Source of the DNA: Fibrobacterota bacterium
Lineage (GTDB): Bacteria; Fibrobacterota; Fibrobacteria; UBA11236
Assembly (NCBI GenBank): GCA_028287505.1
Contig: JAQBPN010000007.1
Location: 116,120-148,119 of the forward strand
Length of the DNA: 32,000 nt
Direction: 5' to 3'
The notes beneath the pieces are model-generated. The model was given only the letters and a program-made list of their open reading frames with translations. It was not told where the DNA came from and ran no database searches. Below, piece by piece: positions 12,790-30,497 of the stretch. A program made the translations under genes and the position numbers. The number at the start of each line of letters is the position of its first letter. Positions within the stretch are counted from its first letter, which is position 1.

Positions 12790-14733
12790 ATGCCGGCCGC
12801 AAGGCCGGAGGGAGGATCCCTGAATCGCACCGCTTTGATCGGATTCGCACTGCTCTCATGGGCATGGGACGCCCATTCCCAAGGCGCGTGGATCCGGCAG
12901 GATCCGCGGCCTGCGAATATGCAACTCAACGCCGCCGATTTCGTCGACTCCCGCCACGGCTGGGCTGTGGGGACGGGCGGAACCGTTCTCAGGACCACGG
13001 ACGGCGGGGATACCTGGACCCCGCAATGGTCCGACACGTCCTTCAGCGCCGTTTCCGTGGACTTCCTCAATCCGGACACGGGATGGATTTGCGGATTCCC
13101 GGCAACGATCCTCAAAACCACGGACGGAGGCGGTACGTGGACCGTGAAAAAATTGGGCGGAACCGGACCTCTGTACGCCATCCATTTTCACGATGCCCGG
13201 CTTGGCTGGACGACCGGTGAGGGCGGCTATATTTTCCGGACCCGGGACGGCGGGTCCACCTGGGACACCTGTCCCCGGGCGACGGAATGGAGCCTGAAAT
13301 CCATTCAATTCATAAACGCATCCAAAGGCTGGGCCATGGGGGAATACAGCTCCATCGTCACGACGGAGGATGGAGGAACGAGTTGGAAATCCTTGGGAAA
13401 GGTGGGAGAGTTCATCGCTGCGTCCCAGTTTCTGGATGCGGATACGGGATTCGCGGCCGGAACCACGGGAAATGTTTTCAAAACCGCAGACGGCGGCGTA
13501 TCGTGGATGCAATTGAATCCCCTGACCATAAAAGACCTTTTCGCGATCCATTTCGCGGATTCCCGGACCGGATGGGTGGCCGGACGGGCGGGCTGGATCA
13601 GCAAGACCGTGGATGGGGGGGCTACGTGGACGGCGCAGGATTCCCGCGTGCCCGTCACCCTCTACGCCATCCCGTTCGTGGGCAAAGACACCGGCTGGTT
13701 TGCGGGAGATAACGGCACTCTCGGCAAGACCACGGATGGGGGCGCCACGTGGACCTTTCCGCCCAACGCCGTCAAGAGGTCCCTGCGATCCGTCCACTTT
13801 ATCGATGCCGAAACGGGATGGGCCGCGGGAGACGCCGGCACCATCCTCGGCACCACGGACGGCGGACTGCACTGGTTGGATCGCAATCCGCCCACCCGGG
13901 AGGACTTCGGGGCCATCCATTTTCCGGACGCCAAGCATGGGTGGGCAGTGACGTTTTCGGGGTCGGTTTTCAAATCGGAGGACGGCGGGATCGGATGGAC
14001 GCTGCAGAAGAAATTGGGGAACAATCCCTTGGCCAGCGTGTGGTTCATCGATGATCGCAACGGATGGCTCGGCCGTGAACACGACTTCGTACGCAAAACC
14101 GAGGACGGAGGGGAAACTTGGATACCCCAGGATAGCGCCACCTTCGGCGCCGCAAGGATACGCTTCGCCGATGCCCTTCGGGGTTGGGCCTCGGACGGCA
14201 GGCGGCTGCTCCGGACCCGGGACGGCGGCAAAAACTGGGACAGCATCAGGACCACCGAGGCCCTCCGGGGATTCGCCATGGCGTCCGCTGATTCCCTGGT
14301 CGGCATCGGAAGCGGCTTTTTGGTCCATCGCACCTTCGACGGCGGAACCCATTGGTCGGCGGCGGACGTCCGTACGGAAGCGATGGGCTCCAATGCAGTG
14401 GCTTTCGCGAAATCGGGAGAGGTCTGGGGCGTGGGCATAGGCGGGGAAATCACCGGGTCCAAGGACGGCGGAGCGACCTGGACACGGGTGGGCGGCAAAG
14501 CCGACAAGGCCGATCTGCATGATGTATTCCTGTTGGACGGCGGCGGCGGATGGGCGGTGGGAGACAGTGGGGTCATCCTTAAATACGATGCCAACGCTCC
14601 CGCTTCCATAGCGACCGGAAAAAGCCCCCATGTGGATTACCGTAAGCGAAATAGATCGGCGACGACCATGCCCGGCCGCAAAATACCCTGGCTCTCCGGT
14701 TGGTTCGATTTCCTGGGACGCCGCAACCTTTAG
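12790..14733 (+). CDS. Secreted BNR/Ycf48-like (sortilin/GH74-type) tandem beta-propeller protein
   Basis: Signal peptide, then 13 evenly spaced copies of the motif [ST]x-DGGx[TS]W (TTDGGDTWT, TTDGGGTWT, TRDGGSTWD ... SKDGGATWT) about 43 aa apart, consistent with two 7-bladed propellers. The C-terminal tail is basic (RKRNRSATTMPGRKIPWLSGWFDFLGRRNL). Confidence 0.85.
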   Translation: MPAARPEGGSLNRTALIGFALLSWAWDAHSQGAWIRQDPRPANMQLNAADFVDSRHGWAVGTGGTVLRTTDGGDTWTPQWSDTSFSAVSVDFLNPDTGWICGFPATILKTTDGGGTWTVKKLGGTGPLYAIHFHDARLGWTTGEGGYIFRTRDGGSTWDTCPRATEWSLKSIQFINASKGWAMGEYSSIVTTEDGGTSWKSLGKVGEFIAASQFLDADTGFAAGTTGNVFKTADGGVSWMQLNPLTIKDLFAIHFADSRTGWVAGRAGWISKTVDGGATWTAQDSRVPVTLYAIPFVGKDTGWFAGDNGTLGKTTDGGATWTFPPNAVKRSLRSVHFIDAETGWAAGDAGTILGTTDGGLHWLDRNPPTREDFGAIHFPDAKHGWAVTFSGSVFKSEDGGIGWTLQKKLGNNPLASVWFIDDRNGWLGREHDFVRKTEDGGETWIPQDSATFGAARIRFADALRGWASDGRRLLRTRDGGKNWDSIRTTEALRGFAMASADSLVGIGSGFLVHRTFDGGTHWSAADVRTEAMGSNAVAFAKSGEVWGVGIGGEITGSKDGGATWTRVGGKADKADLHDVFLLDGGGGWAVGDSGVILKYDANAPASIATGKSPHVDYRKRNRSATTMPGRKIPWLSGWFDFLGRRNL

Positions 14734-14750: not shown

Positions 14751-15125
14751 ATGCGCGAAAAAACCATGCCGCCAAGACCGGTCCGCTCGCCATTTACAAA
14801 GCTGCTTTTAGCCCTCTTGAGAAAGATCCCCAAAGGCAAAGTGGCCTCCTATGGACAGATCGCGGCCCTGGCCGATCATCCGCGCGCCGCGCGCCAGGTG
14901 GTGCGCCTGTTGCATACTCTTTCCGAACGCGAGAACCTGCCCTGGCACCGGGTGGTCAACCGTAACGGGCATATTTCCCTTCCCATGGAAGGCGCAGGCG
15001 GCCTGCAACGTCGCCTATTGATCAAAGAAGGCGTAAAAGTGAACGCGCAAGGAGCGATGGATTTGGAACGGTTCGGATGGAAGCCGGAAATGAAGCCGCG
15101 CAAATCCGCGCTTCCTCGCGGGTAA
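14751..15125 (+). CDS. Alkyltransferase-like (ATL) protein: MGMT/Ogt DNA-binding domain with the active-site Cys replaced by Trp
   Basis: IPKGKVASYGQIAALADHPRAARQVV...LPWHRVVNRNGHISL. The canonical PCHRV is PWHRV here, as in the ATL family. The ORF track starts at TTG 14700, inside the upstream gene. ATG 14751 is preceded by GAGGA at 10-nt spacing. Confidence 0.8.
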   Translation: MREKTMPPRPVRSPFTKLLLALLRKIPKGKVASYGQIAALADHPRAARQVVRLLHTLSERENLPWHRVVNRNGHISLPMEGAGGLQRRLLIKEGVKVNAQGAMDLERFGWKPEMKPRKSALPRG

Positions 15126-15131
15126 AACCCA

Positions 15132-15806
15132 TTAATGGATTTTCAAAACGATGCGGCGGTTCTTGGCCTGATTGGATGAAATCGGCTTCCCGTCGCCGTC
15201 CACGTTGGGCACCTTGGGCTTGGTGTCCGCGTAGCCCGCCGCCTTGAGGCGCTCGGACGGAATGCCTTTTCCGATCAGGTACTTGACGATGTTGGTGGCG
15301 CGCGAAACCGAGAGTTCCCAGTTGGACGGGAACTGGAGGGTATTGATGGGAATGTTGTCCGTGTGGCCCTCGATGTCCACCGCGAACTTGTAATACTCGA
15401 TGCGTTGGATGGCATCGGCCACCTTGTCCATGTTCGCCCGCGCCGAGGGTCCGATATCCGCCTTGCCCGGATCGTAGATGGCCGAACTCGAGAATTCCAC
15501 GATGATGCCGTCGCGCCCCAGATCGATGTTCACTTCGCCGCGCTTCCGCTGATCCGCCAGGAGCGAATCCAGGTCGTGCTTGATTTCGCCCAGGGGCGTC
15601 TTCACGTCCTTGTCCTTGCCGATATCGCTGCGCAGGCCCTTCTTCATCTGTTCGAAGAGCACCGGATCCACATGGGAGACGGAAAGCATGGCCAGGAAAA
15701 AGGCCATCAGGAGCGTCACCATGTCGGCGTAGCTCATGAGCCAATCCTCTTCGACCCCTTCGTGTTCCGGGACGCGGTGGCGGTTGTGGTGTTTTCTGAT
15801 GCCCAT
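15132..15806 (-). CDS. motB: Flagellar-type stator protein MotB (OmpA-like peptidoglycan-binding C-terminus)
   Basis: WLMSYADMVTLLMAFFLAML carries the invariant channel Asp in the single TM helix. The C-terminus is OmpA-like (EGHTDNIP...SNWELSVSRATNIVKYL...AGYADTKP...NRRIVLKI). Confidence 0.9.
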   Translation of the reverse strand: MGIRKHHNRHRVPEHEGVEEDWLMSYADMVTLLMAFFLAMLSVSHVDPVLFEQMKKGLRSDIGKDKDVKTPLGEIKHDLDSLLADQRKRGEVNIDLGRDGIIVEFSSSAIYDPGKADIGPSARANMDKVADAIQRIEYYKFAVDIEGHTDNIPINTLQFPSNWELSVSRATNIVKYLIGKGIPSERLKAAGYADTKPKVPNVDGDGKPISSNQAKNRRIVLKIH

Positions 15807-15815
15807 GGAGAGCGC

Positions 15816-16625
15816 CTACTTGCCCTTCTTGGCGGCCCCGGGCTTGTCGCCGAACATCGAATACTGATCCTTGCGGTCCAGGTAGGAATTCATCTTGTCC
15901 TGGATGTACATGGCCGGCTTCTTTTCCATGATCAGGACCAGGGCCTCCAGGATCAGGTAATGGCGGAAGCGCTCGATGCTCAGGGTCTGCTTCACCTTGG
16001 TGGAGGAAGGCATGAATACGAAGCGGGCGAAGAGCAGGCCGTATAACGTGGCGGTCAGGGCCAGGGAAAGTCCCGGTCCCAGCTTGGACGGGTCTTCCAG
16101 CTTGCCCAGCATGACGATCAGTCCCAGCAGGGTGCCCACCAGGCCGAAAGCCGGAGTCATGGATCCCATGGAAGTCAGGATGGTGGATCCCTGCAGATGG
16201 CGGAAGTAATGTTCTTCGATGTTGGTGGTGCCGAACTCCCGGATGTCGTCCGGCTTGTAGCCCGTGCTGGCCAGGGTGAAGATGTACCTGGTGAATTCGT
16301 CCTTGCTGGACTTGGCGATGGAGTCGTAGCCATTCTGGCCCTCGGCCTGCACCTTCTTGGACCATTCGCCCGCGAGCCTCACATCCTGGATCAGGCTCTT
16401 GGAGGAGATATCCTGCTTGACGAATATCTTCAGGGTGGCCCTGAAGGCGTTCCACACGTATTGGAAGCGGAACCCGATGAAGGTAACCGTAACGGTACCC
16501 CCGAAGACGATGGCGAAGCTGCCCAGGCTCAGGAAAACCTGCCAGTCCTTGGTTTCATGGAGGATTCCCAGGGCTATGACCAGGAACCCGAAAACGACGC
16601 CGCATACCGTGGATAGGGAGATCAT
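15816..16625 (-). CDS. motA: Flagellar-type stator protein MotA/PomA (4-TM proton/sodium channel subunit)
   Basis: 269 aa with two N-terminal TM helices, a ~100-aa cytoplasmic loop, then MTPAFGLVGTLLGLIVML and LSLALTATLYGLLFARFVFMP (both conserved Pro present). Its ATG overlaps the upstream gene's TGA (ATGA at 16622-16625). Confidence 0.9.
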   Translation of the reverse strand: MISLSTVCGVVFGFLVIALGILHETKDWQVFLSLGSFAIVFGGTVTVTFIGFRFQYVWNAFRATLKIFVKQDISSKSLIQDVRLAGEWSKKVQAEGQNGYDSIAKSSKDEFTRYIFTLASTGYKPDDIREFGTTNIEEHYFRHLQGSTILTSMGSMTPAFGLVGTLLGLIVMLGKLEDPSKLGPGLSLALTATLYGLLFARFVFMPSSTKVKQTLSIERFRHYLILEALVLIMEKKPAMYIQDKMNSYLDRKDQYSMFGDKPGAAKKGK

Positions 16626-17914
16626 GGGGCCTTTTCCTCTTTGGCTGCCTTCGCATCCTTGGGCGCGCCGGACATCGCGTCTTTTGACGCGCCGGGGAGC
16701 GGGATCTTGGCCTTCTTCTCTTCCGGCTTGCTTTTGTCGGCGGCCTTGGCGGGAGAAGCGGGAGGGACGGGAGCAGCGGCCGGGGCGGGTGCCGGAACCG
16801 GCGTTGTGACCGGAGCCGGGGCGGGCGTCTCCGCGGCGTCCGCTTCGGGGGCCGCTTCGTTTTCGGCGGCGGGAGCGGCGGCGGGTTCAGGCTCCGGAGC
16901 CGGGGGCGCGGCGGGGCGCGCCTGGGTGGGCTTGGCCAGATGGGTCGCGCGCTGGACCGGAGCGGCGGCCTCCGGGATCGGTGCCGCGACCGGTGCGCCG
17001 GCGGAGGAGGCCGGAGCCGCGTTCAACTGTCCGTTGTATTCCTCCGGGAAGGGAACCTGGTCCGCCTCGGGCAATGCGGCCGCGGAAGGGCGCGGAGCGG
17101 GGCGGGGCATGATGGGGCGGGGATTGGGCGATCCCCGGCCGCCCGGAGTGCGGGTCTTCTCGAGCATGTTGACCACGGCGGGCATGTCGGGATTGAGGCG
17201 CAGGGCTTCCATCCATTCGCGCCGCGCCATGCCGCCCTGTCCCATCATGTAGTGGATGCTGCCCGCCAAGGCGTGGCCTTCCGCGGTGGAACGCGCATCC
17301 AGGGAGGATCGGACGGCCTGCATGGCCTCCGGGAAGCGCTTCTGGTAGAAAAGCTCCTGGGCCTTGCGGATGCCCGTCAGTACCTTGGAGGTTACGTCCT
17401 CGTAGTCTCCCTGTTCCTCTTCGGCGGGCGGCGTTTCGGGTTTGGCGCGGGCGCGCGGATCCTGCGGTTGCTGGTGTTGCGCCGGTGGCTGACGCAAGGC
17501 ATTCCGCTGCGGGTCCGGATCCGGTTGGGCCTGCCCGTCCTGATCCTCCTGGGAAGGCGGCCTGGGTTCCGGATTGGCCGCTTTCGCCCGCTGGGCGGCA
17601 TGATGCTCTTCCGGTTCGCGGGCGGCGTGCTTGGCTTCTTCCGAGGGAGGCGGATTCGGCTTTCCGGTCATTTCCAGGTACAGATCCGTGGACCCCAGAT
17701 CGATGGTCACGTTGGCATCGGTGCTTTTGTTCGCGTAATGGAAACTGATGCTGCCTTGGCCGTTTTCGCCCGGTTCGGTTTCCGGCCCGGCCTGGGACTG
17801 GGAGGGAGCGGAACTCCTGACGTCGGGATCGGGGGCGCTTCCACCGCAACCAAGCAGGAGCATTGCGGCCATGACGGCCGAAGCCGCCGCGCGCGCGGAT
17901 GCCTCGGCCGTCAT
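16622..17914 (-). CDS. Lipoprotein with a single TPR pair embedded in long Pro/Ala/Glu/Gln-rich disordered regions
   Basis: Preferred start is ATG 17914, giving MTAEASARAAASAVMAAMLLLGCGGS (lipobox LLGC). The ORF-track start at 17971 is TTG and would overlap the upstream gene. The TPR-like core is AQELFYQKRFPEAMQAVRSSLDARSTAEGHALAGSIHYMMGQGGMARREWMEALRLNPDMP. The C-terminal ~170 aa are PAPAPA/KAK low complexity. Confidence 0.75.
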   Translation of the reverse strand: MTAEASARAAASAVMAAMLLLGCGGSAPDPDVRSSAPSQSQAGPETEPGENGQGSISFHYANKSTDANVTIDLGSTDLYLEMTGKPNPPPSEEAKHAAREPEEHHAAQRAKAANPEPRPPSQEDQDGQAQPDPDPQRNALRQPPAQHQQPQDPRARAKPETPPAEEEQGDYEDVTSKVLTGIRKAQELFYQKRFPEAMQAVRSSLDARSTAEGHALAGSIHYMMGQGGMARREWMEALRLNPDMPAVVNMLEKTRTPGGRGSPNPRPIMPRPAPRPSAAALPEADQVPFPEEYNGQLNAAPASSAGAPVAAPIPEAAAPVQRATHLAKPTQARPAAPPAPEPEPAAAPAAENEAAPEADAAETPAPAPVTTPVPAPAPAAAPVPPASPAKAADKSKPEEKKAKIPLPGASKDAMSGAPKDAKAAKEEKAP

Positions 17915-17933
17915 GGCCGCCCGCGACCGCGGC

Positions 17934-19088
17934 TTAGAACGTGTAATGCAGATAGGTGAGTTCATAGGCAACGGGTTCCAGGGTCAGGAAACGATTTTCT
18001 TCATCGGCGCCGAGACCTTTCAGTTTGTTGTTGAGGGGCATGAAAAGAATGCCTCCGCCCAAGGTGAAATGGCGGCTGACGCGCGACTTGTAACCCACCG
18101 TGAGCGTGCTGAGATGCCCGCGATTGTTGAAAGGGACGAACTCCTTGTAACCCACGTATGTTCCGAGCCAGTAGCCCAGATCGGGATTGGATTTCCGGAA
18201 GAAAATCCCCAGCATCTCGATGCCGAAATTCACCATCTGGATGTTGAAGTTGACCGCCAGGCTGTCCGGCCCGCCCGTGCCGTTGGCGAAACCGTACCCG
18301 AGGGAAACGGAGAAGAGCAGGAACTTGTCCGGGGTGACCGCTTCGCTGACCGTGCCTTCGATTCCGTACATGGTGAGGGCCAGGTTGGAGAGGGTGTCCA
18401 GTTTGGGGCGGCCGAGCGAATCGGAGGCGACCGCGCTGGGGACGATGCCTTCCTGGATGGGGAAGCGGGTCACGTTGGCGGAGGCGCTCCAATCCAGGTT
18501 CCAGATGTCCGGCTTCTTCTCGTTGGGTCCGGCCACGAAGCTGTTCGACCAGACGATTTCGCCCGTGCGGTGGCGGAACACCTTCAGGTTCAGGATCACG
18601 TCGTTGTCCGCGCTTTTGGAACAGGAGCCTTCGATATAGCCGTCCACGCGGAGCTTGTCCCCCAGCTTCCAGAGATCTTCCATGGACGGCAGGGTGTTGG
18701 AGAACTTGAAGGTGCTGTCGGTGGCCACCACGCGGAAAGTCCGGAGTTCCGGGGACGTGACCACGGTCTTGCGGCCTTCCTTGCGGAACACCTCTTCGAT
18801 CTGGGCCTGGATGTAGCGCGAAATGCCGGGGCTGAATTCCTTGGGATCCACTTTGATCTGGGACAGGGCGATGCGATCGATGTTGGGAGGGATGTCGCCC
18901 ATGGTCTTGGACAGGCGCCCCATGATCTCCGCTATCTGGCGGAGGCCGGTGGAACTGGGCGCGAAGGGATCCGGCGAAGACGCGGCCGCGGAAGCGGACG
19001 GCGCGCACATGGCCAGGCATAAGGCCAGGCACATGCCCATGATCGGGGCCGGGAGGAAACCGGCCCTGTTCGCGGAGCCGGAAATCAT
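17934..19088 (-). CDS. Predicted outer-membrane protein: periplasmic N-domain plus C-terminal beta-barrel
   Basis: Signal peptide (MGMCLALCLAMCAPSASA). The C-terminal half has alternating amphipathic beta-strand patterning and ends in an aromatic residue (...YELTYLHYTF), as is typical of OMP barrels. The N-domain pattern (IALSQIKVD...ISRYIQAQIEEVF...GDKLRVDGYIEGSC...VILNLKVFRHRTGEIVWS) resembles the small periplasmic modules of CsgG/FlgO/LpoB-type proteins, by pattern only. Its ATG overlaps the TGA of the upstream gene (ATGA at 19085-19088). Confidence 0.7.
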   Translation of the reverse strand: MISGSANRAGFLPAPIMGMCLALCLAMCAPSASAAASSPDPFAPSSTGLRQIAEIMGRLSKTMGDIPPNIDRIALSQIKVDPKEFSPGISRYIQAQIEEVFRKEGRKTVVTSPELRTFRVVATDSTFKFSNTLPSMEDLWKLGDKLRVDGYIEGSCSKSADNDVILNLKVFRHRTGEIVWSNSFVAGPNEKKPDIWNLDWSASANVTRFPIQEGIVPSAVASDSLGRPKLDTLSNLALTMYGIEGTVSEAVTPDKFLLFSVSLGYGFANGTGGPDSLAVNFNIQMVNFGIEMLGIFFRKSNPDLGYWLGTYVGYKEFVPFNNRGHLSTLTVGYKSRVSRHFTLGGGILFMPLNNKLKGLGADEENRFLTLEPVAYELTYLHYTF

Positions 19089-20941
19089 ACCGGCCTCCCC
19101 GAATGCTTGATTTCGTCGCGGATCCTGTGGAGGAGGCGGCGTTGCGCGGCCTCGGACTCCTTGGGCGTGGCGTCCTTGGAGCCTTCCATGCCCCCGGACA
19201 CCATCATCTGCATGCGTTCCGGCAGCAGGGAAAGGACTTTGGCGCGGATGGGCGCTTCCACGTGGAGGAGGGCCAGGATGAGGGTCTCCTGATCCAGACC
19301 CTGGAGGACGGTGCCCAGGAACTTGTCGGGCAGTCCGACCACTTCCGGCAGGGTAACGTACCGGTTACGTAATTTCTCGCCCAGGCCCAGATCCATTTCG
19401 GAGATGGAGTGGATGTACTGGAACTGCATGTTGAGGGGCAGGCTGTCGATCAATTCCAGGATGCTGTCCACGCCGTCGGCGGCCACGTAGCGCATGTTGC
19501 CCACGTCCAGGGCCTTGAGGGACAGCCGGTCCGCGATTTCCTTGTACACGGTGACCGGGATATGATCGATGTTCCCCATGGCGATCAGGAGCTTGGCCCG
19601 GTTGTCGGGATCCGTTTTCTGCAGGATGCCGCCGGCGACTTCGCCCGGCAATTGCGCCAGCACCAGGCCCACTATCCCCAGGGATTCGTCGCGCAGGATG
19701 TGCATGATCTGCTGTTCGTTCATCTGCAGCAGGAACCCGAACATGTCCTTGTATTGGTCTTCGTCCATGTGGCCGTTGGCCAGGTTCTGGTACTCGCGCT
19801 TGAATTCCTTGTACACGGTGAGCATGTCTTCGGAGGTGGGCGTCTCCCCCGCGTTCATGTGCATTTCCAGCTTTTGCGCGATATCGCGCCCGAGTTCGGG
19901 GGCGATCACGCCCATCAGGCGCGCGTCCAGGCTGGCGATCATGGCGGCGGAGTCGCGCATGCCCTTGTCGGGGTCGCGCTGGATCCAGCTCTTGATGATC
20001 TGGCCGCAATGTTTGGGGCTGCCCACGAAGCAGTTCAGCAGAAAGGGGCGGAAGGCGCCGAGTTCGGAAGGCTGGCCCTTGCCCGCGTCCGCCTTGCGGG
20101 CCGCGGACTCCCTGGGAGGCTCGGGCGCGGGAACGGGGGCGGGCGGATACTTGTCGTTCCGTTCGCCGCGGGACGAACCCATGATGGCCCGCGAGACCAT
20201 CCACACGCAGGCGAGGATAAGCAGGCAGATGATGACCAGGGGAATCAGGGAGGGAAGATGGTCGGTATAGTTGCCGAAGGGATTGGCGGCGGCCTTGTCC
20301 CTGGCATCCTCTTTCTTGGAGGCCGTGTCGTTCTTGGCCGGGGCCTGGGCGGCCGGCATGGGAGGAGGATCCACCGGCTTGCGGTAGTTGGTCAGGGAAC
20401 GGTTGTCGCGCGGGAACACGCCTTCGTGGACGGAGACTCGGTCACCCCGCGGCTCGTCCAGGCGCGTGGCCATGGTCAGCAGATTGCGGATGAACTCCAC
20501 GTCCTTCTGGGAGTATCCGGTATCCACCAGGATGTCCAGGGTAACCGCCTGGATACCCCCGGGATTGCGCGCCGCATCGTCGGCGGAGGGAACCGGAGCG
20601 GAGGGCTGTACGGTTTCCGGCAGGAAAGGAAGTCCCGGCAATTGCTGGGGCATTTCGCCCGAAACGGCGGCGGGGTCGTCCCCGCCCAGTTCCATTTCCG
20701 GCGGCGGTTCCATTTCGACTTTGGCTTTGACGAGATAGGTCGATTCTTCGTAATAGCGCGCGAGCGTGCGCGAGGCGATGTTCTCGTAGTATTGGGCCAG
20801 CTTCGCGGCCTGGTCCAGGGGCGGCCTGGCGCCGGCCATGGAGGGCTGGGCGGTCGCGTGGGCCGCCATCCCCAGAACCAGGGACAGACTTGAGATTTTA
20901 CAGGCGATGGACATGGCAATGCTGATTATACAACCCGGCAT
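19085..20941 (-). CDS. Bitopic inner-membrane protein: FliF/YscJ-like periplasmic ring-building segment + TM + two cytoplasmic FliG-like (FliG_M/FliG_C, MgtE-N-like) repeats
   Basis: N-terminal signal/anchor (MSIACKISSLSLVLGMAAHATAQ). The periplasmic segment AVTLDILVDTGYSQKDVEFIRNLLTMATRLDEPRGDRVSVHEG resembles the FliF/YscJ block (xSVxLxL...xxxQVxxIxxLVxxAVxGLxxxxVTVVD). The TM helix is LPSLIPLVIICLLILACVWMV. The cytoplasmic FliG-type repeats are FGFLLQMNEQQIMHILRDESLGIVGLVLAQLPGEVAGGILQKTDPDNRAKLL and LPDKFLGTVLQGLDQETLILALLHVEAPIRAKVLSLLPERMQMMV...SEAAQRRLLHRIRDEI. The start may be ATG 20941 or ATG 20914. Confidence 0.75.
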   Translation of the reverse strand: MPGCIISIAMSIACKISSLSLVLGMAAHATAQPSMAGARPPLDQAAKLAQYYENIASRTLARYYEESTYLVKAKVEMEPPPEMELGGDDPAAVSGEMPQQLPGLPFLPETVQPSAPVPSADDAARNPGGIQAVTLDILVDTGYSQKDVEFIRNLLTMATRLDEPRGDRVSVHEGVFPRDNRSLTNYRKPVDPPPMPAAQAPAKNDTASKKEDARDKAAANPFGNYTDHLPSLIPLVIICLLILACVWMVSRAIMGSSRGERNDKYPPAPVPAPEPPRESAARKADAGKGQPSELGAFRPFLLNCFVGSPKHCGQIIKSWIQRDPDKGMRDSAAMIASLDARLMGVIAPELGRDIAQKLEMHMNAGETPTSEDMLTVYKEFKREYQNLANGHMDEDQYKDMFGFLLQMNEQQIMHILRDESLGIVGLVLAQLPGEVAGGILQKTDPDNRAKLLIAMGNIDHIPVTVYKEIADRLSLKALDVGNMRYVAADGVDSILELIDSLPLNMQFQYIHSISEMDLGLGEKLRNRYVTLPEVVGLPDKFLGTVLQGLDQETLILALLHVEAPIRAKVLSLLPERMQMMVSGGMEGSKDATPKESEAAQRRLLHRIRDEIKHSGRPV

Positions 20942-21085
20942 TTGGGGAGACTACGGATTTTCAGTTTGCCCCGGAAAGGACAAAGCTTGATAAAAGCTTA
21001 AAGTTCTACGGATGATTTACCGATAACTTCCGGATGAACCGGCGGCCATGCGAAGGCACGGCCGGGCCGGGAGAAGGGATTGGAC

Positions 21086-22789
21086 ATGTCGATAGGGTTT
21101 CGCCTCGCGATATTCGGCGCCCTCGCCTTGTGCGCATGCGATGACGGCACCGTCCATGTCGTCCGTTTCCCTTCCGGAAAAATCCGCGAAATGTGGACGG
21201 AGAAAGGCCCCAATCCCAAGGCCACCGTGCGCGAGGGTCTCTTCCAATCCTTTTTCCCGGACGGAAGCCGTTCCAGCGCCGTGGAATACCGCGGCGGCGG
21301 CAAGAACGGAAGCGCCAGCATGTGGGATGCCGGGGGCCGGCTCCGATTCAAGGGCGAATACAAAGACGACTTTCTGGTGCGGGAGATCCGTTACGACACG
21401 TCGGGAAAGGTGTCCGCGGATCGCCGTTTCTCCGTCAAAACCGATCGGGTCAAAGCCATCGGCTCTTCCGGGGACTCCCTGACGGTCCCGGAAACCTGCG
21501 CCTGGTCGGAGGCCGCCGGCCGGCCGCCCCTCAAGGACGGCCTTTGCACCATGAAGTATGCGGACGGGAAGGTCATGGCCACGCGCTATTACCAATCCGG
21601 AAGGCTGAACGGCCCCGTAAAGGCCTGGTACCGGGACGGCACGCCCTGGATGGACGGTTCCTACGCGAATGCCATCCCCGCGGGCAGATGGCGCACCTGG
21701 ACCCCCGGCGGAAACCCGCTCTGGTCGGCCGCGTACGACAAAGGAGAACGGGAAGGGGCCTGGGAGGAATGGTTCCCGGACGGCGGTCCGAAATCGAAAT
21801 CAGCCTACCGGAAAGGCAAAGCGGAAGGGGGGTATCAGGAATGGTACCCCAGCGGCAAACCCCGCCTGCGCGGGCAATTCCTGGCGGGGCGCCGGGAAGG
21901 CCAGGAAGCGGCATGGTATCCCGACGGCGCCCGCCTGTATTCCGCCCGTTACGCGGGCGGCCAACTGGAAGGGGATTTCTACCAATGGCACCCGGGCGGC
22001 AAACTGCGCCTGCATTGCCGGTTCGCCAAGGGAAAGAAAGAAGGGGGCAGCCGGGTATGGTATCCCACGGGCGTATTGCAGGAGCAGGCCTATTACAAGG
22101 CGGGGCGCCTGAACGGCTCCTATCGCACCTGGTCCGCGGAGGGCGCGCCCATGGCCATGAAGGAATTCCGCGACGGAGCCGTGGCATTCGACTCCAAGGC
22201 GAAGGAGCTCCTGGATCTCCTGGGGGCGGATCAACTGCGCGTGCCCGTGGGCATGATGGGATTCTACTGGGGCATGGGCGCCAAGGAATGCCGCGCCAAC
22301 CTGGGCCTGTACCAGGCCTCGGACGTGCATGCGAACGACGAGGGGATCACCGCGAAGATGATCGCCTTCCCGGATCGCCGCCCCACCCAGGCGCAAATCC
22401 GGCTCTCGTTCAACGGCCAAGGCGAACTATGGGGCATCAAATTGGATTTGCTCCAGCAATCGTCCGGGGACTTCTTCCCTTTGTGCGAGAACCTGGAAAT
22501 CGAAATCGGCGCGGAATTGGGAACGGCGGGACTGCGCAAGGCGGAAGGCGCATCGGATTACAGCATGACGCGGAAAAGGGATTGGGGGAAGTTCACGGTG
22601 ACCACGGGAACGGCCGGGGGCATCCAACAGGACCTGCCGGTCCTGAGCGCGGAAGGATTCAGCCCCGCCGCCAAGGGGTGGTTCCGCTTTTCCCTGGCCA
22701 ACCACCTCTATCGCGAATACGTGAATCCCGCCAACGCATCCATCACGCCTCCGCGTTGGCAGGAAGAGACCTTCCTCGCCGGACGCTGA
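21086..22789 (+). CDS. MORN-variant (YwqK/COG2849-like) repeat lipoprotein with an uncharacterised C-terminal domain
   Basis: MSIGFRLAIFGALALCACDDG is a lipoprotein-type signal. About 10 repeats of the Gx(E/N)GxxxxWxPxGxxxxxxxY type follow (GEREGAWEEWFPDGGPKSKSAYRKGKAEGGYQEWYPSGKPRLRGQF...). The last ~200 aa have no motif I recognise. GGGAGAAGGG lies upstream of ATG 21086; the ORF track starts at TTG 21080. Confidence 0.75.
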   Translation: MSIGFRLAIFGALALCACDDGTVHVVRFPSGKIREMWTEKGPNPKATVREGLFQSFFPDGSRSSAVEYRGGGKNGSASMWDAGGRLRFKGEYKDDFLVREIRYDTSGKVSADRRFSVKTDRVKAIGSSGDSLTVPETCAWSEAAGRPPLKDGLCTMKYADGKVMATRYYQSGRLNGPVKAWYRDGTPWMDGSYANAIPAGRWRTWTPGGNPLWSAAYDKGEREGAWEEWFPDGGPKSKSAYRKGKAEGGYQEWYPSGKPRLRGQFLAGRREGQEAAWYPDGARLYSARYAGGQLEGDFYQWHPGGKLRLHCRFAKGKKEGGSRVWYPTGVLQEQAYYKAGRLNGSYRTWSAEGAPMAMKEFRDGAVAFDSKAKELLDLLGADQLRVPVGMMGFYWGMGAKECRANLGLYQASDVHANDEGITAKMIAFPDRRPTQAQIRLSFNGQGELWGIKLDLLQQSSGDFFPLCENLEIEIGAELGTAGLRKAEGASDYSMTRKRDWGKFTVTTGTAGGIQQDLPVLSAEGFSPAAKGWFRFSLANHLYREYVNPANASITPPRWQEETFLAGR

Positions 22790-26711: not shown

Positions 26712-27812
26712 CTAGAGGTCCACGGCCTTGGCCAAGTCCTTATAGATGCGGCCCACGCGCTCCACTTGGCCTTTGGCCGGAAAGCGTTCGTAGAAACCTT
26801 CCGCTTTGAAGGCCTTTTTCAATTCGATCCAGGGTTGCAGCCGTTCGGCCCAGCGCTTGACCCGGCCCACGGAGGGTTCGCCGTCCTTTTCGGAAAGATC
26901 CGCGCAGACGCGGATGAGCGCTTTGAGGGTGACCGGCCGGGTGACCATGTATCCCGAGTTGCCCCAGATTTCGCCCCACACCTGGGCGGAAGCCTTCAGG
27001 AAGTCCCGGAGTTGCTCGTAATAGCGTTCCGCCTGATGGGTCGGGGAAAGATCTTCCTTCGGATCCCATTCGGATTTGACCCAGCGGTTGATTTCATTGA
27101 AAAGCTCGGCCTGGAGAATCCATTTCTCCTGCTTGCTTTTGCCGCCCAGGCGGTTGATACGGTATTGGAGCGGGCTATCGTCCCGTCCATACAGATGCTC
27201 CACCACGCGGGCTGCGCAACGCTTGTCGGGCGAGGCGAAGGACACCCGCTCGTACAAGTCCACCAAGTGGCTTTTGTTGATGCGGGTGGGGGTGGAGTTG
27301 ATGATGACGAACATTTCCGTGGCGAAATCCTCGCTGCGGCCGTCGAAAATGATGCAAGGCACGTTGATGGATGCGGCCTCGTCCGGACGCTCCCGGAAGA
27401 AGAAATGCAGGGCGGCCAGGCGGTGCTGTCCGTCGATAATCAGGTATTTCCCGTCCGGATCCGACAGATGGCCCACGCCTTCATTGTCCCCGATGCCCCG
27501 GAACCGCAGCTTCTCCGCGGTGAACAGCAATACCGTGCCCGGAATGGGGGGCTGGGTGCTGGCGGTCTCGTAGAAATTGCGGATGGAGCGGATTTTGTCC
27601 CGCGCCATGGTGCGCTGGAAGGCCTTGTCCGATTTCTCGATACGGCCGATGAATTTGGCGATTTCGTCCTCGGCCGGAGCGGGTTCCGCGGCGATGGGCG
27701 TACCCTCGTCGTAGAAACGGCTGCTGAAACGCACCTTCTCCAAGAGCGCTTTCGCCGGATAGGCGGCGAAGTAGAAGATTGCGTCTTTTTGTCGGACCTG
27801 AGTAGCCAGCAT
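26712..27812 (-). CDS. DGQHR-domain protein (DndB-like, ParB/sulfiredoxin-fold superfamily)
   Basis: The literal motif IIDGQHRLAAL is encoded at nt 27434-27420 (GAC GGA CAG CAC CGC on the minus strand). Upstream is the FYFAAYPAKALL start and downstream is FVIINSTPTRINKSHLVDL, matching the DndB/DGQHR family layout. 366 aa, ATG at 27812. Confidence 0.85.
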   Translation of the reverse strand: MLATQVRQKDAIFYFAAYPAKALLEKVRFSSRFYDEGTPIAAEPAPAEDEIAKFIGRIEKSDKAFQRTMARDKIRSIRNFYETASTQPPIPGTVLLFTAEKLRFRGIGDNEGVGHLSDPDGKYLIIDGQHRLAALHFFFRERPDEAASINVPCIIFDGRSEDFATEMFVIINSTPTRINKSHLVDLYERVSFASPDKRCAARVVEHLYGRDDSPLQYRINRLGGKSKQEKWILQAELFNEINRWVKSEWDPKEDLSPTHQAERYYEQLRDFLKASAQVWGEIWGNSGYMVTRPVTLKALIRVCADLSEKDGEPSVGRVKRWAERLQPWIELKKAFKAEGFYERFPAKGQVERVGRIYKDLAKAVDL

Positions 27813-28446: not shown

Positions 28447-29690
<1,244 letters not shown>

Positions 29691-29694
<4 letters not shown>

Positions 29695-30497
29695 ACCGCA
29701 TCGACGCCGCCTTCGCGCGCCTCAAGGAAAGCCGGAAGAAAGCCTTCGTCCCTTATATCGTCGCGGGCGTGCCCGGCAGCGATGAAACCGTGGAAATCGT
29801 GCTGGAGCTGGAACGGCTGGGCGCGGACGTGATCGAGCTCGGTTATCCTTTTTCCGATCCCATGGCCGACGGCGTGGTGAACCAGGCCGCCGCCAACCGG
29901 GCGCTGGAACTGGGCGTGGACGCGGACGCGTATTTCGCCATGGTGGCCAAGATCCGCGAACGCTCGCAAATCCCTATCCTCGTCTTCTCCTATCTGAATC
30001 CCATCTTCAAGCTGGGGTTCGACGCCTTCGCGCGCCGCGCCAAGGCCGCTGGCATGGACGGCATGCTGCTGGTGGACATGCCGGTGGAGGAGTCCCTCGA
30101 TCTGCAGGCCATCTGCAAGCGCGAGGACTTGTCTCTGATTTTCCTGGCTGCGCCGACCACGACGCCGGAGCGCCTGGAAAAAGTGCTGCAAGGCGGCACC
30201 GGATTCCTGTATTACATCTCCCGCACCGGCATCACCGGGGAACAGGCCTCCTTCCAGCAGGACTTCGCCGCCAAGGTGGCCGCCATCAAGAAGGCCAGCA
30301 AGTTGCCGGTGGTGGTCGGCTTCGGCATCTCCACGCCCGACCACGTGCGCACGGTCTGCGGGCTGGTGGACGGCGTGGTGGTGGGCAGCGCCCTGGTGCG
30401 CCGCACCTTGGAGAAGAAACCCTTCGCGGACATGCTCGCGGACATCAAGGCCCTCGTGGCGCCTTTGGCCGCTCCCACTAAGGAAACATGGAACTGA
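29691..30497 (+). CDS. trpA: Tryptophan synthase alpha chain
   Basis: The ATG at 29691 overlaps the trpB TGA (ATGA). [29 protein letters not shown]...[20 protein letters not shown]...[10 protein letters not shown]...VVVGFGIS...VVGSALV. In the ORF track it is buried in the longer frame 28848..30497. Confidence 0.95.

Follow-up and report, generated by a model that had tools for sequence, protein, structure and literature searches.

A FliF-FliG-like fusion encoded with a flagellar-type stator looks like part of an ion-driven envelope machine outside the flagellum

What does a FliG-like rotor protein do beside stator genes when nothing else of a flagellum is encoded nearby? The question is raised by five genes in a 32,000-nucleotide stretch of DNA, hereafter the window, from a Fibrobacterota bacterium (assembly GCA_028287505.1, contig JAQBPN010000007.1, positions 116,120 to 148,119). 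FliG and flagellar-clade MotAB stators are known to work only inside flagella. A first-pass annotation, made from the letters of the window alone, had proposed that the five genes form a stand-alone, ion-driven machine of the cell envelope. The operon looks like an undescribed ion-driven envelope machine that is derived from the flagellar motor and couples ion flow to the outer membrane, because the same gene set recurs in several phyla, including in a non-motile cultured species. We read the locus as encoding a rotor-stator machine complete in itself, which derives from the flagellar motor but does not belong to a flagellum, and give this reading a probability of about 0.55. The genes, designated A to E in the order of transcription, are five tightly packed open reading frames (ORFs) on the minus strand, between 15132 and 20941:

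19085-20941, minus strand: gene A, 618 amino acids (aa), a fusion of a predicted FliF-like periplasmic domain, a transmembrane (TM) helix and FliG
17934-19088, minus strand: gene B, 384 aa, signal peptide, predicted periplasmic domain and predicted outer-membrane beta-barrel, without a Pfam family
16622-17971, minus strand: gene C, 449 aa from TTG, tetratricopeptide repeat (TPR) lipoprotein with lipobox LLLGC
15816-16625, minus strand: gene D, 269 aa, flagellar-type MotA (PomA/MotP-like)
15132-15806, minus strand: gene E, 224 aa, MotB with TM Asp (SYADMVTLL), plug and OmpA-like peptidoglycan-binding domain

All five were present in the ORF list of the window where the annotation had placed them, as were the two ATGA start/stop overlaps that it had described at the A/B junction (19085-19088) and the C/D junction (16622-16625). 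D and E are separated by 9 nt. An ATG at 17914, 19 nt past the stop codon of B, would give C a length of 430 aa and is likely the start of this gene. Promoter and terminator scans of the operon returned nothing above shuffled expectation. The further claims that nothing else in the 32 kb is flagellar and that the flanks are housekeeping or unrelated were borne out by a Pfam scan of the window, which found no flagellar families outside the operon (several ORFs had no Pfam match) and identified ATL-like DNA_binding_1, lepA, Ycf48-like BNR and MORN proteins in the flanks. Many long overlapping ORFs occupy both strands of 15022-20893, for example 19409-20893 on the plus strand (494 aa) and 15022-16455 on the minus strand (477 aa). 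Such overlaps with the five genes, in other frames, are commonly seen in DNA of 60-66% GC, and nothing supports these ORFs as genes; those on the opposite strand inside the operon (e.g. 19409-20893) were set aside as high-GC shadow ORFs.

Protein A is a natural fusion of a FliF-like ring-building domain, predicted to contain one ring-building motif (RBM), with a membrane anchor and FliG. This assignment follows from FliG matches in Pfam and the PDB, an RBM3-like predicted fold and a TM helix. Its parts, by residue and by position in the window, are:

Residues 1-33 (20843-20941, minus strand): N-terminal signal peptide, with a hydrophobic core and an A-x-A/AQ-type site, from the sequence and the family alignment
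Residues 42-173 (20423-20818, minus strand): predicted periplasmic alpha-beta-[insert]-beta-alpha-beta domain, FliF RBM3-like, with an AlphaFold2 (AF2) predicted local distance difference test score (pLDDT) of 84-96 for the core
Residues 78-129 (20555-20710, minus strand): 52-residue insertion between beta1 and beta2 of this domain, with an LPG(L)P motif
Residues 229-258 (20168-20257, minus strand): single TM helix, from an AF2 helix and the hydrophobic stretch LIPLVIICLLILACVWMV
Residues 327-397 (19751-19963, minus strand): FliG_N-like region, sub-threshold (Pfam FliG_N, 9.5e-5, 23.4 bits against a cutoff of 25)
Residues 410-482 (19496-19714, minus strand): FliG middle domain (Pfam FliG_M, 7e-13)
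Residues 512-610 (19112-19408, minus strand): FliG C-terminal domain with torque helix LLPERMQMMVSGGME (Pfam FliG_C, 5e-14)

The FliG_M and FliG_C matches both exceed the Pfam gathering scores, and a sequence search of the PDB matched solved FliG structures down to 6e-12, including that of Aquifex FliG (3hjl). The NCBIfam fliG model (TIGR00207) covers only aa 392-608 and scores 7.7e-21, at 74.8 bits against an equivalog cutoff of 226.7. In place of the FliM-binding EHPQR motif, the window protein has DESLG...R; alignments showed that H-P-Q is lost throughout the A family and that E...R remains, with E419 and R448 near-invariant.

The periplasmic part of A, about 190 aa with one RBM, was assessed from an AF2 model of residues 1-270 built with 36 homologues in the alignment. 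When this domain was compared to the PDB with Foldseek, the top 17 matches were all RBM3 chains of FliF MS-rings or S-rings from Salmonella and Vibrio, with E-values of 5.6e-5 to 5.6e-4. Target-normalised TM-scores were mostly 0.47-0.58 against chains of RBM3 or the S-ring only, and 0.16-0.34 against longer FliF chains. At the sequence level, Pfam YscJ_FliF_C matches aa 125-173 below threshold (E 2e-3), and the homologue at locus L064 reaches 1.5e-4. Neither RBM1 nor RBM2 is present in the AF2 model of A, and the N-terminal YscJ_FliF family had no Pfam match. Residues 12-30 form a hydrophobic helix in the model, and the signal peptide is probably cleaved, judging from its sequence; A would then be a single-pass protein, unlike FliF with its two TM helices. 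In the insertion, L101, P102, G103 and P105 are invariant in the A1 alignment, and LPG is invariant across the wide alignment. By analogy with the RBM3 insertion of FliF, the segment is a candidate equivalent of the beta-collar.

The fusion of the two rotor proteins in one chain has laboratory precedents. FliF-FliG fusions of Salmonella assemble working motors, and a Vibrio fusion has been solved by cryo-electron microscopy (PDB 8z4d/8z4g; 8z4d was a sequence match to A and both were fold matches). These are, however, deletion-fusion mutants or engineered proteins with full-length FliF in a complete flagellum, whereas A is natural, has a single predicted RBM and stands alone.

The stator proteins are of the flagellar type. 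D matches Pfam MotA_ExbB at 3e-22 and the NCBIfam models of MotP, PomA and MotA at 1e-36 to 3e-40, as against about 1e-4 for TolQ and ExbB (22 bits with the TolQ model, whose cutoff is 221). It aligned over its full length to the solved stators 6ysf, 8ucs, 9lu9 and 8bri (1e-23 to 5e-26), and the two conserved MotA prolines in TM3 and TM4 line up with theirs; like them, it has four TM helices and a large cytoplasmic loop. E contains the channel Asp in SYADMVTLL, matches Pfam MotB_plug (9e-17) and OmpA (2e-16), and scores 5e-49 with NCBIfam MotD. TolQR/ExbBD identity was rejected by the NCBIfam scores. All NCBIfam scores of both proteins are well below the equivalog cutoffs. Since D and E fit flagellar models best and yet fall below these cutoffs, we place them, from sequence comparison, in a divergent branch of the flagellar stator type.

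The residues through which MotA and FliG meet were compared between the two partners. Arg576 of A, within LLPERMQ, is equivalent to E. coli FliG R281 and is invariant in every lineage aligned. An acidic residue is found at the position of FliG D288/D289 in Balneolaceae, in Elusimicrobia and in most of the distant members; in Balneolaceae the equivalent of D289 is Glu. On the stator side, the equivalent of MotA R88/R90 is Lys or Arg in Balneolaceae and Gln, Ser or Thr in Fibrobacterota, where the equivalent of E96/E98 stays Asp or Glu. At the positions of E. coli R90 and E98, the loop of the window MotA has Gln and Asp and that of Gracilimonas tropica has Arg and Ser, in an alignment that depends on the method. 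Each clade thus apparently keeps at least one of the two canonical MotA-FliG charge pairs, on both partners. This pattern agrees with a working contact between MotA and FliG; we regard it as suggestive and do not count it as proof.

The two remaining proteins have no counterpart in the core of the flagellar motor. By sequence, B matched nothing in Pfam or NCBIfam, nor did Pfam match any of 33 family members or a profile search of the PDB return a structure; none of its 58 homologues has an assigned name. The AF2 model (mean pLDDT 80) predicts a periplasmic alpha/beta domain followed by a C-terminal beta-barrel:

Residues 47-186 of B (18531-18950, minus strand): predicted alpha/beta periplasmic domain with a TolB-N / LpoB-C / GNA1162 / FlgT-like fold (Foldseek)
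Residues 198-383 of B (17940-18497, minus strand): predicted beta-barrel of about 8-10 strands (DSSP)

Foldseek matched the periplasmic domain to the C-domain of LpoB (target-normalised TM-score 0.67-0.70), to TolB (E 1e-5), to FlgT (1.1e-3) and to a chain of the LPHT-ring (3.6e-4), and likened the barrel to OmpA-TM, OprG and Pla/OmpT. B ends in ...YELTYLHYTF with an invariant aromatic terminus (Y375, Y382 and F384 are invariant in homologues), and the invariant ...LHYTF fits an outer-membrane beta-signal. The likeness to FlgT is one of fold only: Pfam FlgO was found in 0 of 33 homologues, with a weak match in the distant homologue at L064 (18.2 bits against a cutoff of 22.6).

Protein C contains a lipobox (LLLGC) and one weak Pfam match, TPR_2 at aa 230-262 (1e-3). 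It is homologous to Balneolaceae proteins of 204-250 aa (hhalign 99.9%), in which the lipobox Cys is conserved. At 449 aa, C of the window clade is about twice the usual length. The extra length consists of Pro/Ala/Glu-rich low-complexity stretches which flank the TPR core, are not conserved in other clades and are reminiscent of periplasmic spacers of the TonB/TolA type.

At the level of the proteins, then, the first-pass annotation stood up well. Its 618-aa FliG-like protein has FliG_M, FliG_C and matching PDB structures; the FliF-like, ring-like periplasmic segment that it had suggested has a predicted RBM3 fold for which Foldseek ranks 17 FliF chains first in the PDB; and its MotAB of the flagellar type, rather than TolQR/ExbBD, agrees with the gap between 1e-36 to 3e-40 and about 1e-4 and with the prolines, plug, channel Asp and OmpA domain. 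What it had called an outer-membrane barrel is predicted to be one, with a periplasmic N-domain and the invariant C-terminal ...LHYTF, and in its TPR lipoprotein the lipobox Cys is conserved and the TPR core gives one weak TPR_2 match.

To what extent do these five genes belong together? We scanned gene order in one genome per species, covering 59 loci from Fibrobacterota metagenome-assembled genomes (MAGs), Balneolaceae and one Rhodothermia MAG. Wherever a locus of these 59 species-level genomes is long enough, its genes stand in the order A-B-C-D-E, with intergenic gaps of -4 to +39 nt. B and C of Fibrobacterota are homologous to those of Balneolaceae (hhalign probability 99.7% and 99.9%). 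With an Elusimicrobia MAG added to the 59 species, the five-gene order holds across taxa, which was one way the annotation had offered of checking its proposal. The Balneolaceae include cultured carriers, G. tropica DSM 19535 (L036) and Balneola sp. EhC07; a search for a cultured Fibrobacter homologue with a profile of Fibrobacterales-type A proteins returned MAG proteins only. No sixth conserved gene emerged from the flanks, and there is no relationship between two 238-aa genes that lie downstream of MotB, each in a different clade. Since no flanking gene family is common to both phyla, the conserved unit is exactly these five genes.

The A family extends further. A protein of a Fibrobacterota MAG matches the window with 100% identity. 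Homologues of about 600 aa number 98, and a profile of A searched against 1.84 billion representative proteins returned 238 clusters at 50% identity (E<=1e-30), most of them 580-730 aa long and matched over the whole profile. Named members come from MAGs of Elusimicrobia, Gammaproteobacteria, Pseudomonadota and 'Deltaproteobacteria'. Gene orders around A in these and other distant relatives are:

L072, Elusimicrobia MAG: A-B-C-D-E as in the window, with B homology of 99%
L069, Gammaproteobacteria MAG (JAOUHV010000005.1): Sel1/SPOR, MotA, MotB, B-like, TPR, A
L070: TPR, A, MotA, MotB
L071: 398-aa protein, TPR, A, MotA, MotB
L073: 969-aa protein, A, TPR, MotA, MotB
L067 and L074, 'Deltaproteobacteria' and Pseudomonadota MAGs: TPR, A, small protein of about 215 aa

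The N-domain of the B-like protein in L069 matches B at 92.6%. Because the same components recur, differently ordered, across phyla, their shuffled recurrence is strong evidence that they form a functional module, with a patchy distribution that includes at least Fibrobacterota, Balneolaceae, Elusimicrobia and Proteobacteria MAGs. The distant loci also show some individual features. In L069 (11614-17819), the shuffled module is followed immediately, in the same orientation, by an exopolysaccharide export set comprising a BBP2_2 barrel, a Wza-like Poly_export/SLBB protein, a Wzz/GNVR tyrosine-kinase-like protein and Wzy_C; these neighbours, seen in one lineage only, are a possible hint at the output. 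In L070 (12496-15573), MotB is followed by a string of Bat-like genes (MoxR AAA, DUF58, DUF4381, VWA), and a B-like barrel gene was not called beside A. L067 (7034-10597) has a PilZ gene upstream on the other strand, and L074 (1-3812) is the same reduced variant. The protein of about 215 aa is OMP_b-brl-like in L074 only (E 1.6e-3, sub-threshold), and that of L067 has no Pfam match.

Could the operon be what is left, decaying and without function, of a flagellum that was lost? Loss of flagella has been inferred for some lineages in both host phyla, and no NCBIfam score comes near its equivalog cutoff, as a relic might show. The ORFs are intact, however, and the gene set, which includes two non-flagellar partner genes, has been conserved at over 60 loci in different phyla. 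Purifying selection acts on each of the five genes, with ratios of non-synonymous to synonymous substitution (dN/dS, NG86) of 0.01-0.29, and the 238 clusters of the A family again speak for retention. Selection and conservation effectively rule out a relic, to which we assign only a very slight probability.

A second alternative is that the operon serves a flagellum encoded elsewhere, as an accessory or alternative motor module, either a second rotor/stator set or a scaffold like the H and T rings of Vibrio. For Fibrobacteres other than the Fibrobacteraceae, flagella have been inferred to be common and the ancestral state (PMC4704652), and Balneola vulgaris is described as flagellated. The likeness to Vibrio (FlgO, FlgP, FlgT; MotX, MotY) lies in the TolB-N/FlgT-type fold predicted for the N-domain of B, in the weak, sub-threshold FlgO match of one homologue and in the TPR/Sel1-type repeats that C shares with MotX; B and C would likewise sit between stator and outer membrane. 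Unlike the Vibrio proteins, B lacks sequence-level membership and is fused to a beta-barrel, and the module has no L/P ring or rod to surround. The flanks of the operon speak more directly: among more than 60 related loci from Fibrobacterota, Balneolaceae, Elusimicrobia and Gamma- and Deltaproteobacteria MAGs, no flagellar genes were found within about 10 kb, and neither these flanks nor the 32-kb window hold genes of the export gate, rod, hook, filament or switch. Among carriers of the module, G. tropica has been described as a non-motile species and has only 17 COG-N genes (PMC4642740), and it and Balneola are reported to lack flagellar-assembly genes (PMC9909488, section 3.4). By the conditions for refutation that the annotation had itself set, both this occurrence and the conserved gene order favour its proposal. 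We note that this report of no flagellar-assembly genes in G. tropica stands beside the FliG-like, MotA and MotB genes that we found in L036. Moreover, A could not stand in for FliF and FliG in a flagellum, because it lacks RBM1 and RBM2, which hold the export gate, and its FliM-binding EHPQR motif is reduced to E...R. We therefore consider a role as a flagellar accessory improbable, if clearly less so than a relic.

Compared with the flagellar motor core, the module shares the RBM3-type domain (predicted), FliG M and C domains with the Arg equivalent to R281, and a stator of the flagellar clade, whose MotB has a plug, the channel Asp and an OmpA-like domain as peptidoglycan anchor. It differs in that the FliF-like and FliG parts are joined in one chain that has a signal peptide and a single predicted TM helix, without RBM1/RBM2 and without EHPQR. 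Unlike in a flagellum, genes for the export apparatus, rod, hook, filament, FliM/N and chemotaxis are not near the module, which is joined instead by an outer-membrane barrel and a TPR protein and is present in a non-motile organism.

How might such a machine work? In the mechanism that we propose, A would be exported N-terminus first and anchored by its one TM helix. Its RBM3-like periplasmic domain would oligomerise into a ring that lies within or above the inner membrane, placing the FliG M and C domains in a ring on the cytoplasmic face. MotA5MotB2-type units of D and E would be fixed to the peptidoglycan via the OmpA-like domain of MotB, and ion flow at the channel Asp would turn MotA against the FliG torque helix, driving the A ring relative to the wall. 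The periplasmic face of the ring, made of RBM3 and the LPGLP insertion, would hand motion or force to the outer membrane, with the TolB-N/FlgT-like domain of B and the TPR lipoprotein C as putative receivers; like the Vibrio H and T rings, these two proteins may in addition serve the stators as a scaffold. Candidate outputs are export, movement over surfaces, and dynamics of the outer membrane or the surface layer. In its fullest form, this would be a free-standing rotary engine, a FliF-FliG ring spun by MotAB whose periplasmic collar drives the complex of barrel and TPR protein for a purpose other than swimming; this form is tentative, and we hold it at somewhat below even odds.

Several points weigh against a self-contained rotor-stator machine. 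The RBM3 match of A is modest (TM-score 0.5-0.58 on the target, E about 1e-4), and the insertion at 78-129 has low pLDDT in the monomer model. In the window clade, Gly-Gly stands in place of FliG D288/D289 (in Fibrobacterota, Gly-Gly or Ser-Ser) and Gln in place of MotA R90, which leaves one of the two canonical charge pairs in this clade; the co-variation of charges rests on about two independent lineages, and the MotA loop alignment is ambiguous and differs between methods. L067 and L074 have no MotAB within 8-9 kb of A. An axle, filament or other output part is not recognisable in the module, and the ring of A and its contacts with MotA, B and C are proposals. Finally, the inferred ancestry of flagella in Fibrobacteres outside the Fibrobacteraceae leaves room for a flagellar connection.

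Some of these points favour the chief rival explanation, a non-rotary force transducer across the envelope. A ring or smaller oligomer of A would here be a fixed platform that recruits and activates MotAB, and energy would reach the outer membrane as in Tol-Pal or TonB, to tether or remodel this membrane or to gate B, without continuous rotation. The missing axle or filament gene, the charge pair lost in the window clade and the relatives without adjacent MotAB (L067, L074) all suit such a device, as do the envelope and exopolysaccharide genes that adjoin the module in one lineage. The partner set also resembles Tol-Pal (TolQRA, TolB, Pal, CpoB): an operon with an ion-driven 5:2 motor, a TolB-N-like domain (in B), an OmpA/Pal-like binder (in MotB) and a CpoB-like TPR protein, with predicted products spanning the whole envelope. 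In contrast to Tol-Pal, MotA and MotB of the module fit flagellar models and not TolQ/TolR (1e-40 vs 1e-4), TolA is absent, B is a predicted barrel and not a beta-propeller, and the cytoplasmic partner is FliG. It is these differences that tell against the transducer: the stator is flagellar, with plug and OmpA domain; FliG, here with its invariant torque-helix Arg, has the single known role of being pushed by a rotating MotA; and a ring-building domain of the RBM3 type answers the needs of a rotor. We regard the non-rotary transducer as doubtful, though much less so than the accessory or relic, and retain the rotor-stator machine as the preferred reading.

Other systems powered by a 5:2 motor resemble the module in less detail. 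GldLM of the type IX secretion system, AglRQS-Glt, ExbBD-TonB and ZorAB all use an ion motor of the stator-unit type to power a process at or beyond the outer membrane; none uses FliG or an RBM ring. The module has no TonB, no GldM-like periplasmic shaft and no GldM- or Glt-type partners. Zorya was considered and rejected: with PADLOC, MotB alone matched ZorB models (1.6e-16, generic MotB homology), D did not match ZorA, A to C had no match and ZorC/D were not found in the module. The statement of the first-pass annotation that this is no recognised 5:2-motor system thus agrees with the failure of the Tol-Pal, ExbBD-TonB and Zorya models and the lack of GldM/Glt-type partners.

The neighbours of the operon in the window are mentioned for completeness. 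On the plus strand, a 569-aa MORN-repeat protein (21080-22789) abuts the operon, and a 647-aa Ycf48/BNR-repeat protein (12790-14733) is encoded near it. The MORN gene upstream of A, on the opposite strand, is kept in 9 related Fibrobacterota loci and in no other phylum, and for this reason looks like local synteny only. Among housekeeping genes, a 366-aa ORF (26712-27812, minus strand) matches DndB (1e-11) and, sub-threshold, GmrSD_N (5e-5); it may be a DNA-modification or defence-related gene. A 549-aa ORF (28848-30497, plus strand) has a TrpA domain only at residues 289-522. As its N-terminal 288 residues have no match, either the ORF call reaches too far, in high-GC DNA, or the fusion is an unusual one.

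We found no description of a FliG-containing non-flagellar system in the searchable literature, and the flagellar stator clade is taken to be flagellar in a recent survey of how MotAB evolved (PMC12505986). In several sources the genes of the module are labelled 'flagellar motor switch protein FliG' or 'MotA/MotB', and such labels can make non-flagellated genomes seem to hold broken or 'incomplete flagellar pathways'. The two cultured carriers, G. tropica DSM 19535 and Balneola sp. EhC07, make the module testable. If the rotor-stator reading is correct, the module would be the first case of a FliG-based machine beyond the flagellum, as well as an addition to the small set of ion-driven envelope machines. 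Its rotor would be minimal and genetically simple, one gene in all, and suited to structural and single-molecule torque work. The module could be either a reduced descendant of the flagellar motor or a model of a stage of the motor before the export apparatus, and would bear on how the motor core can exist and evolve independently of type III export.

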